Shown piece by piece: positions 22,401-61,133 of a stretch of DNA of 64,000 bases. Both the position numbers and the translations under genes were made by a program. The stretch is from assembly GCA_024679065.1 (NCBI GenBank), contig JAGIQG010000009.1, positions 91,016,001 through 91,080,000 on the forward strand, written 5' to 3'. Under the pieces are notes generated by a model. It was not told the DNA's origin. It made no database searches and saw only the letters and a program-made list of their open reading frames with translations. The first letter of the stretch is position 1, and the number at the start of each line of letters is the position of its first letter. The stretch comes from Sphyrna mokarran. Taxonomy: Eukaryota.

Positions 22401-24269
22401 CAAAATACTGAAGATGATGGAAATCTGAAATAGAAAATGCTGGAAATGCTCAGCAACTCTCGCAGCATTTCTGGAAAGAAACAGTCAATGTTTCAGGTTG
22501 TGACCCGCAGAAAGAAAAGGGATGACAAGACATTTGCTTTCCAGATGGTCTCATTCCAAATGCTTGATTAAGCTCCAAGAATTACTAATGCGTTTAACTC
22601 AGCAGGGGTCTGCTGACTCAGCTTACACTACAAGTTTTGTTTGACTGACATCTTTTAGTAAATATTTTTATGATGCAGTCTTTAAATGCCTTTATAATCA
22701 TAGAATTCCTGCAATGCAGAAGAAACCATTTAATCCATCAAGTCTGCACTGATTCCCCGAAAGAGCATCCTATCCAGGCCACATCTCCCCACCCAATGCA
22801 GAAGTTAATGTCACCCATCACAACTACCCTGCCCAGTGTAGACAATGGGGTAAGAAGTTAGACTGAGAAGAACATAGCACAGCGTAAGAGCAAGTAGAGG
22901 GAAGCCACAGGGCTCAGCAGGACTGTTAGTCTGGAGTGCGTTTGCTACAATGCAAGAAGAATTCAATGCAGATAAAACAGATGAATCAAGTCTGGATTAT
23001 TGCATGAAATTATAATGAAAATTTACTAAAAGTGAATAAAGATGTTAGTCAAACAAAACTTGTACTGTAAGCTGAGTCAACAGACCCCTGCTAAGCTAAG
23101 TGCATTAGCAATTCTTGGAGCTTAATCAAACATTTGGAATGAGACCATTTGGAAAACAGATGTCTTGGAATTATGATGTAATTGTAATTACGGAAGCATG
23201 GTTAAAGGAGGAGCAGAACGGGCAGCTTAACATTGTGGGATGGCAGAAGGATGTGGGGGAGTTGCATTACTGATTAGGGAGCACATCACAGCTGTGTTGA
23301 GGAAGGAGACATTGGAGGGATCTTGCAGTGAGGGATTATGAGTGAAGCTTAGGAATAAGAAGGGTGAAATCACAATGATGAGAGAGTAACATAGAACTGC
23401 CAACAGCCTGCAGGAGACAGAGGAGCAGTTTGTCATCAGATAATGAAAAGGTGCGAAAAGAAACAGAATGGTTGTGATGGGTGACTTTAACTTCCCTCAT
23501 ATTGATTGGGAATCTCTTGCAGCAGAGTCTTGGATGGAAAGCAGTTTGTTAGATGTATCCAGAGGGGTTTTTAATACAGCATGTTGACAATCCAACCAGG
23601 GAGAGAGCCATACTAGCCTTGGTATTGGGAAATGAGCTAGGCCAGGTGATCGATATTTCAGTGGGAGAGTGTTTTGGGCATAGCAACCATAATTCCATCA
23701 GATTTTGGATAATTATGAATAAGAACAAAAGTGGTCCTTGGGTGAGGGTGCTTAATTGGATGAGGGCCAATTACATTCAAATTAGGCAGGAATTAAGGAA
23801 TGTGGATTGGGAATGGCTATTTGAGGGCAAATCCACGTCTGACATGTGGGAGGCTTTTAAAGACCAGTTGGCTAAAGTGCAGGACAGATATGTCTCCACA
23901 AAAATGAAGAATAGAAACAGCAGGTTTGGGAACCATGGATGACAAGGGAAATTATAAGCTTAGTCAAAAGGAAGCATACCTTAGGTCTAGGCATCTAAAA
24001 ACTGACAAAGCCCTTGAGGAGTACAGTGAAAGTAGGAAGGAACTTAAATGTGGATTTAGGAGGGCTAAAAGGAGCCATGAAATATCTTTAGCAAACAGGG
24101 TAAAGGAGAATCCCAAGATTATTTTTATGCATATATTAGAAGCAAGAGGGTAGCAAGAGAAAGAGTAGTTTCACTCAAGGACAATGGAGGGAAGTTATGT
24201 GTGGAACAAGGGAACAACTTTGACTATTCTCACTCCTCTGGCTCACCTGAGCACTGCTTTTCTTTGTTT

Positions 24270-25214: not shown

Positions 25215-25643
25215 TGCAATGGGACCCTGTGTGAGAACCTCTCAGGCTATATCGAGAGCATCCTGAAACCCATTGTACAAAGAACCCCCAGCTTTTGTCT
25301 TGACACTACGGACTTCCTACAGAAACTCAGCACACATGGAGCAGTAGAAACAGGGACACTCCTTGTCACAATGGATGTCTCGGTGCTCTACACCAACATC
25401 CCCCACGACGATGGCATTGCTGCAACTGCCTCAGTACTCAATGCCAACAACTGCCAGTTTCCGGATGCAATTTTACAACTCATCCGCTTCATTTTGGACC
25501 ACAATGTCTTCACCTTCAACAATCAGCTTTTCATCCAGACACACGGAACAGCCATGGGGACAAAATTTGCACCTCAGTATGCCAACATCTTCATGCACAG
25601 GTTCGAACAAGACTTCTTCACCACACGAGATCTTCAACCAAGG
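25215..25643 (+). mobile_element. Penelope RT internal fragment
   Basis: LVTMDVSVLYTNIPHDDG and GTAMGTKFAPQYANIFM are Penelope RT motifs. Confidence 0.9.
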
Positions 25644-26394
25644 TTAGTATCTTTACATCATGGCTAGGGGTCTTCCACAGTGATCAGTGCTGGGACGTCC
25701 GTTGCTGTAGTATGTTATATAGAAATGATCTGGAGGAAAATGTGGGTGGTTTGATTAGTAAGTTTACAGATGACACGAAAATTGGCAGAGTGTTGATAGT
25801 GCTGAGGATTGTCAGAGGATACAACAGAATATAGATACATTGGAGACCTGAGCACAGAAATAGCAGATGGAGTTTAATCCAGACAAATATGAGGTGGCGA
25901 AACATAAAAGGTAGGAGCAGGAGGAGGTCATTCAGCCCTTCAAGCCTGCTCCACCATTCATCATGAGCATGGCTGATCATCTAACTCAGTAGCCTAATCC
26001 TGCTTCCTCCCCATAATCTCCCCACAATCTTGATTCTGTTAGCCCTAAGTGCTATATCTAGCCACCTCTAGACAGAGTGGATAGTCAGATGCTTTTTCCA
26101 ATGATGGAAGAGTCAATTATAAAGGGTCACAGGGTCAAGGTGAGAGGGGAAAAGTTTAAAAGAGATGTGTGGGCGAAGTTTTTCATGCAGAGAGTGCCTG
26201 GAATGCATTGCCAGACGATGTAACGGAAACAAGTATATTAGCTACAGGCATCTGGATGGGTATATGAATAGGGACAAAATAGAGGGATACAGACCGAGCA
26301 AGGCTTTTTTTTCCCCAGGGAATCAAGATCAGTACAGGCTTGGAAGGCTGAAGGGCCTGTTCCTGTGCTGCACTTTTCTTTGTTCTTTGTCCTA

Positions 26395-51719: not shown

Positions 51720-52736
51720 TTACTCCTGGTGGATACTTTGATGTAACAAATGTTTTGATGGTCTTGAGAAGGATGTATTGCATTCCTCACACGTGAACGG
51801 TTTCTCTTCTGTGTGAATGCGTTGATGCTTACGGAGGTTTGATGAGTCCGAGAATGATTTGTCACACACGTCACATGTGAATGGTTTCTCCCCTGTGTGA
51901 ATGCGTCGGTGTACAACAAGGGTCGATGACCGTGAGAACAACTTATCACACACATCACACATAAATGGGTTCTCCCCAGTATGAATGCGTTGGTGTTCAA
52001 GGAGGGTTGATGATCGCAAAAACGATTTGTTGCACACCCCACACATGAATGGCTTCTCCCCAGTGTGAATGCGTTGGTGTTGGAGGAGTGCCGAAGATCG
52101 TGTGAATGACTTGTTGCACACTTCACACTTGAATGGCTTCTCCCCAGTATGAATGCGCTGGTGTTCAAGGAGAGTCCATGACTGTGAAAATGACTTTTTG
52201 CACACCTCACATTTGAATGGCTTCTCCCCGGTATGAATGTGTTGGTGAGTCACGAGTGTTGCTAACATCGCGAAGGCTTGGTCACACACCTCACATTTGA
52301 ATGGTTTCTTCCCAGTATGAAGGTATTGGTGTTTGCGGAGATTTGATGGATATGAGAATGATGCATTGCAGACTTCACATATGTATGGTTTCTTCCCAGT
52401 GTGAATGCGTTGGTGTGCATGGAGATTTGATGACTGAGAGAATGATTTGCTGCATACATTGCAAATGAATGGTTTCTCCCCTGTATGAATGCGTTGGTGT
52501 ACACGGAGGGTCGATAACTGTGCAAATGATTTATTACACACCTGGCACATGAAGGATTTCTCCCCTGTGTGAATCTTCTGATGTGACAGGAGATGGGAGG
52601 ATTGGGTGAAAAACATTTCACAAATTTCACACCTGAAGGGTTTTTCTCCTGTGTGAATTCGCTGATGTATCAGAAGTCTTGTGGATGTCATAAAGGTTTT
52701 ATTGCAAATCTCACAGTTGAATGGTTTCACTTCCAT
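51720..52736 (-). CDS. Tandem C2H2 (Kruppel-type) zinc-finger protein, 12 fingers, 338 aa
   Basis: 12 CxxC..HxxxH units with TGEKP linkers, uninterrupted; probable exon acceptor CCTGTTTTACAG at 53183-53184. Confidence 0.93.
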
Positions 52737-54369
52737 TTGGTTGCCCGTGAGAAGAGTTCTCCAACAGACGCATTACGCATGTTAGGGATGTCACATACCT
52801 TACATGCAAACAAACTTCCACCTGCAGCAGATTTTCATGCCTTCATGAGGTTTGATGAATGATGAAACCTTTCACTACATTTCGAAGTTCACTTTTCATT
52901 TCTCACTTGACCAATCACCTACAGCCGAACCTCTAGAAAAGGTTGGTTCTGCTGGAAGGTTTCACACCACTGACCAGTTTCAGATCTGATGATGTGTCAA
53001 AGCACCCCTGACCTGGCCAGTTTCTAGGTGGTTTCACTGCCAAACCATTTTTGTGTTGAGCATGTTGAGAAGGGACTGGGATATCTTTCCACAGTTGTGC
53101 AGTTGTTCTTTGGGTGATGGTCAGGATTTATCTGCAGTATCTATTCTCTCTGTATTCTCTGGTGTAGTTTGGTGCAATCCTTCTGTAAAACAGGAAAAGG
53201 AAACATAATTTTCTTCATTACCCTCCCTCCTTTATTGAAAGGTTTGACTCCAGAGTTAGAGACTTTTCCATAGTGAGTGCCTAACTGCCAGCCCTCTGAA
53301 TGGGAAATCAGATGCTAGTCCTTTATTTTTCTTCACTTGACTGTCACCCTCTGTTTCCACTGGAACACTGGATAATGATTAGGAGCAGACAACATGGCTA
53401 CTTTATTTACTCATCCAGATCCTATCTTCCCAGCACTGTGAGGCAAAGGGAAAAACAGTGGGGTGGAGTATCAATTCAGGAGAAAATTTAATTCAATAGG
53501 GAAAATGGAATTCCTCCCTGTTTTGCAAAATTATTTGAAGAAAACACACTGGGCTAGAAGTGAAGGAAAAATATTGCTTCAGTGTAGCTGAAGGATTCTG
53601 GTTTATCCTAGGAAATTACTCACTCAGATTGCACATCCCAAATTCAGCTATCAGTCACAGCACTGGGCAAAACTATTAAATCCAAGCACAGGCCTGGAAA
53701 GGCCAAGATAATTTTTTAAAGAAAGCATTAAAAAACATTTAATGATAGGTATTAAGGCCAAACTGTTACGGTGCTATATTAACCAGACTGGGATATTTTA
53801 AATCCAACCACAGAAAGTTACAAACGTGGAATTACACTGTGGAAACAGGTCACTCAACCCAATTGGTTTTTGCTGATGTTAATGCTTTCCACAAGCTTCC
53901 TCTCACCCATCTCCATCTCACCCTATTAAAATATCGTTCTGTTCCTTGCTCCTCATGTACTTACCTAGATTCACCTTAAAGACATCTATGTTATCCACCT
54001 CAACCACTCCTTCTTGTGAAACTGAATTTAATACATTTAGGAACTTGTGGAATTGAATCAAACATGAAAACTTTCAGTTTGTCTTAAAAATATAAATATT
54101 GTCCTTCAGTAAAGGGAGCCTGCTACAACTGTCTGGTCTGGTCATCATATGATTCCAGTCCCAAACATGACTGACTTTAAACTGCCCTCTGAAGTGACAC
54201 AGGAAGCAATGACAACAATCAGTACAAAGTCCAACAATAAGAGGAAAATCAGACAGATTTAAACACTCTTGGCATCGTGTCAGAATAAGATTAAGGTGAT
54301 CTCAGCCCAGTGAAATCTGTAAAGTCTCTCTTACTAAGGTCACAGGACAAATTCCCCAAGTCAGGACCC

Positions 54370-57087: not shown

Positions 57088-57277
57088 TCGGCGCTCCGTA
57101 GCGGGAGATAGGCGCGGGGGGCTGCAGGGAAGGAAGCGCGGGAGTATATAAGGAAGGCCAAGGTAGACAGCGGGCAGCATCGGGAGCGGGCAGTGGAGTG
57201 AGACGGGAATTAGAGTGAGAGCAATAAGGGCTTAAGCTCACTGGGCTTGGGCGAGCGCAGGCTTGGACGCGGTGAGT
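57088..57277 (+). promoter_or_regulatory. CpG-rich 5' UTR with TATA box and splice donor
   Basis: TATATAAG at 57145-57152, GGAAG motifs upstream, GCG|GTGAGT at 57272-57277. Confidence 0.55.
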
Positions 57278-57334
57278 AACTTGATTCCTATCTAACCTTT
57301 AGATAACCCAACACCTTTAAAGGGGGTGTACAAA

Positions 57335-58240
57335 ATGCCAGGCTACTTGGCCAAACGCGTCCACTGTGTACGCTGCCATATGTGGACCTTCTTGGAGGCA
57401 CCACGTCTCCCGAAGGCCCACATATGCGCAAAATGTTTAGAATTGCATCGTTTAAGAGCTAGGGTGAGGAAGCTGGAGCTGCGCTTGGAGGACATGTGTC
57501 TAGTGAGGGAAAACGAAGTTATAATGAATAGGGAAGGTAGTCCTGTGGGGACCCCAGGATCTAGTAGCAGGGACGGGCTGGTTACAGATACAAGGAAAAA
57601 GAATAAAAATCAAGGCACAAAGGCCATCTCAAAGGAGGATTCCCAGAAAACCAAGGGAGGGGTAAAAGCTGTGATGGAGAAGGCAAGTGAAGGGGAACAG
57701 AATGCCGCAGAGAACAGCAGGAAAGCAGGAAGAGAGATACTGGTGGGGGATGGGATGGTTAAAGGGATCGATAGGCGTTTCTGTGGGCAAAAGAGAGACT
57801 CCAGGATGGTAGTCTGCCTCCCTGGAGCAGGGGTCCATGATGTTTCAGAGAGGGTAGAGGGAATTTTGAAGGGAGAAGGGTCTAAGGCAAATGTAATAGT
57901 TCACGTAGGACAGAAAGATGTAGGAAGAAAGCGCAGGGGGGACATACGTAGGCAGTTTAGGGAGTTGGGGGCTCAGCTGAAAGGTAGGGCCTCCAGGGTG
58001 GCGTTCTCTGGGCTGCTGCCTGTGCCCAGCACCGATAGGGTAAAAACTAATGAGACACTACAACTAAATGCATGGATGAGGGATTGGTGTAGGTTAGAAG
58101 GCTTCATATTCATTGATCATTGGGAAGTCTTCAGGAGGGAGGGTCATCTATTCAAGAAGGATAGGGAGCAGTTGTCTGGGAGGGGAACCCATATTTTAGC
58201 TGGGAGGTTAGCTGGAGTGTTTCAGAAGTGTTTAAACTAA
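57335..58240 (+). CDS. CR1 ORF1p: CxxC-CxxC zinc finger, coiled coil, SGNH esterase-like domain
   Basis: CVRC..CAKC, LRARVRKLELRLEDM, LVGDG, CLPGA, VHVG and FSGLLPVP..LNAWMRDWC..GFIFIDHW. Confidence 0.93.
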   Translation: MPGYLAKRVHCVRCHMWTFLEAPRLPKAHICAKCLELHRLRARVRKLELRLEDMCLVRENEVIMNREGSPVGTPGSSSRDGLVTDTRKKNKNQGTKAISKEDSQKTKGGVKAVMEKASEGEQNAAENSRKAGREILVGDGMVKGIDRRFCGQKRDSRMVVCLPGAGVHDVSERVEGILKGEGSKANVIVHVGQKDVGRKRRGDIRRQFRELGAQLKGRASRVAFSGLLPVPSTDRVKTNETLQLNAWMRDWCRLEGFIFIDHWEVFRREGHLFKKDREQLSGRGTHILAGRLAGVFQKCLN

Positions 58241-58258
58241 TAGGGAGGGAGGGTGGGG
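58231..58258 (+). promoter_or_regulatory. Candidate -1 ribosomal frameshift signal (T TTA AAC, 5-nt spacer, G-quadruplex motif)
   Basis: In-frame X XXY YYZ heptamer immediately before the ORF1 TAA; ORF2 is in the -1 frame; GGGAGGGAGGGTGGGG at 58243-58258. Confidence 0.65.
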
Positions 58259-61133
58259 AGAGAGAGGGAACTGGGAGTGGGAGAGAGAGGGGTGATAGGG
58301 TAACACCAGAAGGTAGAAAGGAATATCCGAGAGCTGAGGGTCTTCAGTGCATGTGTTTTAATGCGAGGAGTGTGACTGGCAAAACAGATGAACTGAAGGC
58401 AATAATGTTCACGAGGAGTTTAGAAGTGGTGGCGGTGACTGAGTCGTGGTTGAAGGAGGGGCAAGGCTGGCAATTGAATATTCCAGGATATAAGTGTTTT
58501 AGGCATGACAGAGTTGGTGTGAGGAGAGGCGGGGGAGTGGCTTTATTAGTTAAGGACAACATCATAGCAGTGCAGAGGGAGGGAGGTACGGATGATTTAG
58601 GAATTGAGTCTCTATGGGTGGAGTTGAGGAATAGGAAGGGAGTGGTTACTACGTTGGGTGTTTACTACAGACCGCCCAACAGCCCGCGGGCCGTGGAAGA
58701 AGGGATATGCAGGGACATTTTAGATAAGTGTAGGAAAAATAGGGTAGTAGTAATGGGAGATTTCAATTTCCCTGGAGTAGATTGGAGAGTGCCCAGAGCG
58801 GTAGGAGTGGACGGGGAGGAATTTGTACATTGTGTTTTGGAAGGGTCCTTAGACCAGTATGTGGATGGCCCGACTAGAGAGGGGGCTATACTGGATTTGG
58901 TTCTGGGGAATGAGCCAGGGCAGGTGGTTGACGTCGAGGTAGGAGAGCACGTGTCAAATAGTGATCACAACTCTGTCTGCTTTAGGATATTAATGGAAAA
59001 GGACGAGACCTGCCCAAAAGCAAAGGTATTTAACTGGGGGAGGGCTAGATACAGCCAGATTAGGCAAGATCTTAAAGATACCGACTGGGATAAGCTTTTT
59101 GAGGGCTGGTCGACGAGGTACATGTGGGAGTCTTTCAAGGGAAAACTAAATTCTCTGCAGGAAAGATACGTGCCGGCAAGGAGGAAGGATGGGAAAGGTA
59201 GGATTAGAGAACCGTGGCTTACCAGGGATATTGAGGACTTGATCAGGAAGAAGCGAGAGGCGTACATTAGATCTAGGCAACTGGGGACTGAGACAGCGCT
59301 GGAAGCTTATAGAAAGTGTAGACGGGATCTTAAAAGGGGTGTTAGAAAGGCAAAAAGGGGCCACGAAGTGGCTCTGGCAGGTAAGATTAAGGAAAATCCT
59401 AAGGCATTTTACACCTATGTAAGGAGCAAAAGGATGGTTAGAGGCAAGATTGGACCTCTCAGGGACAGAGGATGGGATCTATGCTTAGAGCCTGAGGGAA
59501 TGGGGGAGATCCTGAATGAATACTTTGCGTCGGTATTCACGCAGGAGACTGGCCAGATGTCTGTTGCTGATTTTGACAAAGTTGAGGATCCGTTGAGGGA
59601 AATAAAGATTACAAGGAAAGAGGTGTTGGGGCTGTTAGACAGCTTAAAGACATATAAAGCTCCAGGGCCTGATGGCATTTACCCCAGGCTGCTAAGGGAG
59701 TTGAGGGAAGACCTAGCTGGGCCTCTGACGCAAATCTTTGTCTCTTCCTTGGACACAGTGAGGTCCCAGAGGACTGGAGGATAGCAAATGTAGTACCGTT
59801 GTTTAAAAAAGGTCAGAGGGATAACCCAGGGAACTATAGGCCGGTGAGCTTGACTTCAGTTATGGGTAAGCTAATGGAGAGGATCCGTAGGGACAGGATG
59901 TATGAGCATCTGGAGCGCTGCGATCTGATCAGGGATACGCAGCATGGCTTCGTCAAGGGGAAGTCCTGTCTTACAAATCTAGTGGAATTTTTTGAAGAAG
60001 TGACAAAAACAGTCGATGAAGGACATGCTGTTGATGTCGCCTACATGGATTTCAGTAAGGCGTTTGACAAGGTTCCTCATGGTAGACTGATAGAGAAGGT
60101 GAAGGCGCATGGGATACAGGACCAGGTATGTAGATGGGTCGAGAACTGGCTCGGGAGGAGGAGACGGAGGGTAGTAGTGGAAGGCTCTTTTTCCGACTGG
60201 AGGCCTGTCACTAGTGGAGTGCCACAAGGCTCAGTACTAGGTCCTCTTCTATTTGTGGTCTACATAAACGACTTGGAAGTTGGGATAGGTGGTGAGATCA
60301 GCAAATTTGCTGATGACACCAAGATGCTTGGATTGGCGGGTACAGAGGAGCAGTGCCAGGCAATACAACAGGGATAGACAGGTTGGTAGACTGGGCAGAT
60401 AGATGGCAAATGGAATTTAATCTGGATAAATGCGAGGTGATGCATTTTGGCTGGAAAAATGTAGAAGAGAGTTATAGGATAAAAGGTAAAACTATTCGGA
60501 GTATAGAGACGCAGAGAGACTGGGGGGTGCAGGTTCACAAGTCTCTGAAGGTGTCTTCACAGGTGGAGAAGGTGATAAAGAAAGCTTATAGTATGTTAGC
60601 TTTCATTGAAAAGGGTATAGAATACAAGAGTAGGAGTTTGATGTTGCAATTGTATAGAACGTTGGTTAGGCCTCCCTTGGAATACTGCGTCCAGTTCTGG
60701 TCGCCGTACTATCGGAAGGATGTGGAGTCCTTGGAGACAGTGCAGAGGAGGTTTACCAGGATGCTGCCTGGTATGGAAGGACTGTCTTATGAGGAACGAT
60801 TAAATAGACTGGGGTTGTTTTCCCTTGAAAGACGTCGGCTTAGAGGGGATCTCATAGAGGTGTATAAGATTATAAGGGTATAGATAGAGTAAATGGAGGT
60901 AAACTTTTTCCACCTTCAGAAATGGATAGGACGAGGGGTCATGGCCATAGGGTGAGGGGGGGGCTATGTATAAGACGAATATTAGAGGGCAGTTTTTCAC
61001 ACAAAGGGTAGTGGGGGTGTGGAATGCACTGCCGAGTAAGGTGGTGGGAGCAGGCACACTAGGGCTGTTTAAGGGTCTCTTGGACAGCCACATGAGCGGT
61101 ATGCAGATAGAGGAATATAGTAGGACTGTTTAA
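58231..61133 (+). CDS. CR1 ORF2p (APE endonuclease plus RT), broken by four small indels
   Basis: FNARS, VTESW, YYRPP, MGDFN, SDH, YRPVSLTS, DFSKAFD and FADD; indels at about 59758, 60372, 60877 and 60956-60963; stop at 61131-61133. Confidence 0.92.

Follow-up and report, generated by a model that had tools for sequence, protein, structure and literature searches.

The CR1 element and its ORF1-ORF2 junction

We analyzed a stretch of 64,000 nucleotides from Sphyrna mokarran (assembly GCA_024679065.1, contig JAGIQG010000009.1, positions 91,016,001 to 91,080,000 of the forward strand; hereafter the window) and, within it, the junction between the two open reading frames (ORFs) of a CR1 long interspersed nuclear element (LINE) that lies on the plus strand. 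This junction is a real, ancient and conserved feature, and it is best read as a putative frameshift cassette in a vertebrate LINE. ORF1 (57335..58240, 301 amino acids) starts at Met 57335, carries N-terminal Cys pairs and an SGNH/GDSL-esterase-like domain, and ends in ...FQKCLN. The domain matched OSK (E 3e-7) and Lipase_GDSL_2 (E 1e-5, under the curated cut-off of the latter), and homologues from cartilaginous fish share 37-68% identity, in keeping with the esterase-type ORF1 of a vertebrate CR1 LINE. ORF2 (58231..61130) encodes an APE endonuclease and a reverse transcriptase (RT); a profile search matched L1 endonuclease structures (E 2e-6), whereas a PDB search with a single sequence gave no match. 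From this domain layout and from matching junctions in published CR1 consensi, we classify the element as a vertebrate CR1 LINE with an esterase ORF1. Its family is young and large, with 2289 first-look candidates, of which the 40 that were scored are 98-100% identical. ORF2 spans 967 codons from the junction in unbroken copies, such as 3 of the 20 family copies fetched. The window copy is dead, given four breaks in its ORF2 at about 59750, 60375, 60875, and 60963.

The ORF1 stop codon (58238..58240, TAA in the window copy) directly abuts TTTAAAC (58231..58237), which stands in the ORF1 phase X_XXY_YYZ and is the predicted -1 shift site, a slippery heptamer U_UUA_AAC. The ORF2 frame is -1 relative to ORF1 and is open from 58165 onward. 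In this frame, stop and endonuclease are joined by a linker of 104 nucleotides (58238..58341, LIGREGGER...). The earliest ATG in frame (58351..58353) falls within LQCMCFNARS, three residues ahead of the conserved endonuclease Asn. Behind the heptamer, a 5-nt spacer (TAATA) is followed by a canonical three-tier G-quadruplex motif with loops of 1,1,1 (G3-A-G3-A-G3-T-G4, 58243..58258), and a motif scan gave a second G3x4 motif with longer loops at 58266..58292. An earlier note on this stretch had proposed that the element makes a gag-pol-like ORF1-ORF2 fusion by -1 frameshifting with the help of a natural G-quadruplex. Its description of the phased heptamer, the open -1 frame, the three-tier motif with its spacer and the first ATG agrees with the sequence. 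The second CR1 copy that it drew on, at 22931, does read LECVCYNAR, with no Met at this place, but it is a degenerate fragment from a different subfamily; nothing upstream of it matches ORF1, and it is thus uninformative on the junction.

ORF1 contains no other in-phase X_XXY_YYZ (Y = A or T) than the junction heptamer. The 4-kb element holds just two canonical G3x4 motifs, at 58243 and 58266, both directly behind the heptamer, and none on the antisense strand. On its own, heptamer plus stop is weak: the window has three matches where 0.97 are expected, a count also reached in 6 of 100 shuffles. The remaining two matches are not ORF1 ends. Taken together, phase, G3x4 placement and retention in 13 of 13 lineages (see below) are not a product of chance.

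Conservation of the heptamer and of the reading frame

Because copies of a single family cannot reveal selection, we gathered other CR1 lineages from the genome, using whole ORF1 proteins (ending in LN), patterns of upstream ORF1 motifs and linker DNA from downstream of the site as queries. The heptamer was absent from every DNA query and pattern except that of the first-look family search. The 378 loci yielded 365 junction candidates, of which 296 were non-identical and 235 had an endonuclease anchor. Thirteen lineage groups of at least three copies each comprise 220 copies (one group-2 locus is duplicated), and 15 copies in smaller clusters were omitted.

In all 13 groups, the commonest codons at the end of ORF1 are nnT-TTA-AAC-stop. 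The codon before TTA takes eight forms that encode seven amino acids, every one of them ending in T, and TAA, TAG, and TGA all serve as the stop. In the background codon use of the same ORF1 region, Leu is encoded by TTA in 10 of 116 cases and Asn by AAC in 20 of 55, and T occupies 223 of 916 third positions. As an internal control, we took the 22 degenerate columns whose residue is invariant: one of them keeps a single codon, and none of the 13 that are four- or six-fold degenerate does. Four-fold sites are 43% identical between groups (407/937), so the groups, though related, have had time to vary. The heptamer is under constraint at the nucleotide level, beyond the need of the protein, and the comparison of ORF1 ends to which the earlier note had pointed shows it invariant at synonymous positions in every group.

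Among all 296 candidates, TTTAAAC plus stop was found in 204 and GTTAAAC plus stop in two, six have the heptamer without a stop, 46 carry one mismatch, and 38 carry more, many of the last being deleted or truncated at the junction. The G_UUA_AAC form occurs in one young clade (four copies, 99.0-99.8% identical, with a long open ORF2). A G_UU(A) start is listed for the shift site of equine arteritis virus (PMC5009743). The variant fits a shift site and also shows that the first base of the heptamer is not absolute. At the protein level, 25 of the 33 ORF1 homologues fetched (37 found) end in LN.

The -1 phase is kept over linkers of differing length. By majority columns, the distance from stop to endonuclease is 104, 116, 119, 134, 134, 137, 137, 164, and 167 nt in nine of the 13 groups, in -1 phase each time, and a sister lineage adds a distance of 122 nt. 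A downstream ORF that is open in -1 from the heptamer and has no start codon of its own is likewise found in nine groups by strict count. In 11 of 13 groups no stop interrupts the linker in the ORF2 frame, whereas each group has 3-8 stops in one of the other frames and 1-5 in the remaining one. Reading upstream from the junction, one meets a -1 stop after 1-8 codons in 12 groups and after 22 codons in the window family, with no Met on the way; entry is therefore possible only near the heptamer. The other 12 groups have V, I or L in place of the Met at 58351, and nine of the 13 have no Met in the linker beyond the codon that overlaps the stop. Across groups, ORF2 has no conserved start codon.

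The junction extends to other vertebrates, in most of which CR1-group elements are the dominant retrotransposons (PMC13343379). A positive-only search of the published CR1-group consensi in the supplement of that article gave 23 matches to heptamer plus stop, 18 of them at the ORF1 end by eye. The codes of these 18 entries read as alligator, crocodile, bearded dragon, bullfrog, coelacanth, bowfin, elephant shark, sawfish, stingray, catshark, and dogfish, and one entry is labelled Crack. The main text of PMC13343379 makes no mention of frameshift, overlap or translation. We found no report of frameshifting in CR1 in the literature searched; the original chicken and turtle CR1 papers and the Repbase notes lie outside that search, and an earlier remark there is quite possible. 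Passages of PMC11835228, PMC4255032, and PMC6609765 contained nothing relevant, and the part of the PMC4316615 supplement that was searched contained 3' fragments only.

The G-rich element downstream of the heptamer

The G-quadruplex motif is intact in 26 of 30 copies of the window family, the only family in which four G3 tracts with short loops stand 5-8 nt after the heptamer. With a spacer of 6-8 nt, (G3U)4 brought -1 shifting in reporters to about 7%, and longer loops or fewer tiers lowered it (PMC3919603). The three tiers, 1-nt loops and 5-nt spacer of such constructs match the motif of the window family, and the reporters of PMC12710887 share its heptamer and a 0 frame ending just past it. 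These reporters are engineered, whereas the CR1 motif is natural and known from sequence. The quadruplex is thus a plausible candidate stimulator in the window family, with a geometry that matches the reporter-active form; that it would fold as a three-tier stimulator seems to us nearly, but not quite, an even bet. A natural G-quadruplex stimulator would so far be new when set against the engineered reporters of the cited papers.

The three-tier motif is not conserved across lineages. Among the representatives of the 13 groups, which are single and partly decayed copies, it was found only in that of the window family and is absent from the other 12, and a two-tier pattern within 30 nt is absent from six. 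A looser three-tier motif starting at position 17 (counted from heptamer base 1, as below) is present in five of nine copies of close sister lineages. The natural G-quadruplex of the earlier note therefore stands as plausible for the window family and falls as a general feature. What is shared more widely is a register: at positions 18-22 and 25-27, the most frequent base is G in 10-13 of the 13 groups, compared with mostly 2-8 groups at positions further downstream. The lineage-wide element, a general candidate stimulator, is a G5-6-W-G3 tract beginning about 10 nt after the heptamer (positions 18-27, at 58248..58257 in the window copy). The register includes third codon positions, and the codon at 19-21 is GGG in 12 of 13 groups; among endonuclease Gly codons, GGG accounts for 27 of 100. 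The composite pattern has 6628 matches in the genome against 5 for a reversed control, a figure that reflects copy number and not independent support. In the published consensi (PMC13343379), the G motif stands in exact register in six by eye, the alligator among them, is shifted in others and is missing in one.

Two-tier repeats are weak in reporters, with 0.54% for (GGU)4 and 2.7% for (GGA)4 (PMC12710887). Linear, protein-bound forms are frequent among stimulators that start 12-15 nt downstream, and linear ones 11-15 nt downstream act with trans-acting proteins (PMC5009743). One example is the nsp2 shift of the pig virus PRRSV, which involves nsp1beta and PCBP and whose motif lies 11 nt downstream; as in CR1, it is short, linear and homopolymer-rich and stands at a fixed distance of about 10-11 nt behind the site. 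It differs from the CR1 motif in being C-rich and not G-rich, in giving both -2 and -1 shifts, and in that its binding proteins have been named (PMC5009743). As candidates for the ancestral stimulator we put a G tract bound by protein first, then a quadruplex, either weak or intermolecular, and last a ribosome contact or a constraint on a Gly linker. In groups B and E, the length of pure G runs differs from copy to copy. At the group B loci (L032-L081), most copies would need one more base in the post-stop G run to be in frame; we considered whether this group is a separate out-of-frame lineage and rejected the idea, as the tree is star-like and has no G8 or G9 clade.

We also looked for other kinds of stimulator. 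Folding of the 13 representatives revealed no conserved hairpin (z -2.7 to +1.1). A local hairpin was rejected because there is no shared stem and the window copy (z +1.1) folds no better than shuffles; for a hairpin 5-9 nt downstream, the folds, limited to structures free of pseudoknots, gave no conserved stem, and Rfam gave nothing above chance. Between the G tract and a C-rich segment of the 5' untranslated region (UTR), duplexes are predicted whose energies, uncorrected for composition, run from about -24 to -40 kcal/mol in four groups; for the window family they come to about -20 to -22 kcal/mol. The C-rich segment can also pair locally, displays no clear compensatory change, and is missing in the window family's UTR as well as in several group-1 UTRs. 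Long-range pairing was not accepted as a general stimulator; it may hold in some families.

The 5' UTRs have features of their own. Several CR1 lineages (L402-L411, L288, L298) share a module 70-200 nt ahead of the ORF1 ATG in which a TATA-like box and a perfect hairpin are followed by a C-rich tract and an A run. The hairpin stem differs between lineages by apparently compensatory changes (by eye) and has no Rfam match. The module is possibly a structured regulatory RNA element, and the sequence of its C-rich part complements the G tract at the junction.

Proposed frameshifting and alternative routes to ORF2

We propose that ORF2 is made by a programmed -1 ribosomal frameshift on U_UUA_AAC that would give an ORF1-ORF2 fusion, and assign this reading a probability of about 0.78. 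It is preferred because the heptamer is fixed before the stop, ORF2 is open in -1, no start codon is conserved and a G motif stands at a fixed distance. Shifting by -1 on U_UUA_AAC is textbook knowledge for viruses. In CR1, most ribosomes would terminate at the ORF1 stop and release ORF1p, while in a few percent tRNA-Leu and tRNA-Asn on UUA-AAC would slip back by one base, and the ribosome would read a linker of 35-55 codons into the endonuclease. The product would be a fusion of about 1266 amino acids (ORF1p-linker-endonuclease-RT) with the junction ...FQKCLN-LIGREGGER..., and the shift rate would set the ratio of ORF1p to RT in gag-pol style. The adjacent stop may add pause time. A stimulatory role of the G-rich element is the weaker part of this model; in lineages that are unable to form a three-tier quadruplex, the G tract would most likely be a linear site for a protein that binds G runs, similar to the C-rich motif of PRRSV. 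Of the fusion proposed in the earlier note, the shift site thus appears right on present evidence and passes the comparative tests, whereas the quadruplex was claimed too generally.

The proposed cassette shares with viral and retroelement -1 cassettes the heptamer U_UUA_AAC, which is among the most shift-prone on mammalian ribosomes, and the fusion of a structural-protein ORF to a polymerase ORF in the -1 frame. It differs from them in that CR1 is a non-long terminal repeat retrotransposon, the stop abuts the heptamer and no hairpin was found (PMC5009743). Among LINEs, a similar case is that of TRE5-A and TRE3-A of Dictyostelium, APE-type elements that are stated to need a -1 frameshift for ORF2; they differ from CR1 in clade and host, and the likeness rests on a one-line statement in a review (PMC5911963). 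For Paramecium LINEs, +1 shifting or restart has been suggested (PMC5405496). Reviews give reinitiation as the route to LINE ORF2 translation and describe the question as open (PMC3894237, PMC5972666, PMC2881922).

Several points in this paragraph and the next weigh against the frameshift reading. The case for it is built from sequence features, and the 13 groups are related by descent, so that group counts are not independent draws. The quadruplex motifs are patchy and a conserved hairpin is missing, as described above. By strict count, four of the 13 groups miss the -1 phase. Groups 9, 10, and 11 consist of 3-6 old copies each. Group 11 (three copies) is in -1 if counted from its own heptamer and group 10 (four copies) has a modal distance of 176 nt, which is -1, whereas group 9 (six copies) gives no clear phase. 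Group B has 29 copies with a pure G run, of which 27 are out of frame (21 with G8), whereas five of its six copies with an interrupted run are in frame (Fisher p=4e-4). This pattern points to a G9 source whose run contracts, and it still spoils a clean picture. A search for longer ORF1 homologues, which is a weak test, returned no fused ORF1-ORF2 protein. None of six public RNA runs contained half of the query words; this search covered assembled contigs only, in which the junction was partly skipped as repeat.

Phase alone cannot tell a -1 shift from a restart of the UAAUG type, as the restart phase is identical. In such coupled termination-reinitiation, known from SART1 and L1, the ribosome would restart in -1 at a codon overlapping the stop, held by the downstream G-rich/UGGGA motif, and produce a separate ORF2p. 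Like CR1, these LINEs have a bicistronic RNA and low-level ORF2, and reinitiation is documented for SART1 (UAAUG with a downstream structure) and proposed for L1 (PMC3894237, PMC5972666, PMC2881922). Restart tolerates single changes of the start codon (PMC5972666), and L1 ORF2 is thought to restart without needing an AUG (PMC5009743). In CR1, the -1 codon overlapping the stop is ATG, forming UAAUG, in two of 13 groups and the near-cognate ATA or ATT in five. In the remaining six, which include two young abundant families, the restart codon would have to be GAA, GAT or GTT, and no AUG overlapping the stop is conserved; the window family itself has ATA, against ATG in its likely sister group (support 89/87, not strong). 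Restart also gives no account of the X_XXY_YYZ pattern to which the seven bases ahead of the stop keep even at their synonymous sites. In addition, the UGGGA motif of termination upstream ribosomal binding sites acts upstream of the stop and not downstream (PMC5972666). In contrast to SART1 and L1 with their separate ORF2p, CR1 conserves a slippery heptamer and no start codon. A -1 shift is favored over restart because the heptamer is fixed and the stop-overlapping codon is a non-start codon in six groups, and we regard restart as improbable.

Alternatively, ORF2 could be translated from its own AUG at 58351 by leaky scanning, internal entry or a spliced RNA, with the heptamer and the G tract as passengers or serving another purpose. 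A start at this position would retain the conserved Asn and the Pfam-defined domain, there are splice-donor-like sites in the 5' UTRs, and one contig of run X1 skips 57825-58470 (a single contig whose ends are not GT-AG). This route is very improbable in view of the V, I or L at the place of Met 58351 in 12 of 13 groups, the nine groups without a linker Met, and a linker that is kept stop-free upstream of this Met in the ORF2 frame only. Polymerase slippage on T3A3 or on a G run, joining ORF1 and ORF2 in a minority of transcripts, is likewise very improbable. The length variation of pure G runs in groups B and E shows that they slip at some stage, but G runs sit after the ORF1 stop and so cannot fuse the ORFs, the window family has no run longer than G4, and T3A3 is too short for usual slippage tracts.

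Returning to the -1 shift, a broader proposal is that CR1 elements of jawed vertebrates have made a gag-pol-like RT fusion in this way since before the split of sharks and reptiles, with a G tract about 10 nt behind the site, and not a hairpin or pseudoknot, as the stimulator, which in the window family would have grown into a natural RNA G-quadruplex. We offer it tentatively, as a possible scenario with the odds against all of its parts holding together. The worked cases of LINE ORF2 translation point to reinitiation, from which a CR1 shift site, if true, would differ. The active CR1 enzyme would then be an ORF1-endonuclease-RT fusion carrying an esterase domain, ORF2 annotations that begin at an internal Met would be clipped, and surveys of intact copies as well as reporter constructs would have to retain the junction, a compact cassette of about 100 nt.

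Further observations concern the surroundings of the element. The 5' UTR of the window family has a TATA-like box at 57145-57151 and a splice-donor-like GTGAGT at 57272-57277, and at 57283-57315 of the window a pyrimidine tract is replaced by a short inverted-repeat-like stretch in comparison with sister copies. Donor-like sites and pyrimidine tracts also stand just ahead of the ORF1 ATG in other lineages, which hints at U1 sites or short introns within the 5' UTR. L323, L329, and L341 belong to the same junction group as L260 and have different 5' UTRs, one of which is like that of the window family, a case of UTR swapping between lineages. At L297, a stretch upstream of an old CR1 ORF1 looks like the 5' end of U2 small nuclear RNA. 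Elsewhere in the window, a different RT-like ORF fragment (25215-25667) lies inside the degenerate CR1 copy that starts near 22931, and loose pieces there look Penelope-like by eye. On the minus strand at 51720-52772, a 350-codon open frame encodes tandem C2H2 zinc fingers and is probably an exon of a host zinc-finger gene.

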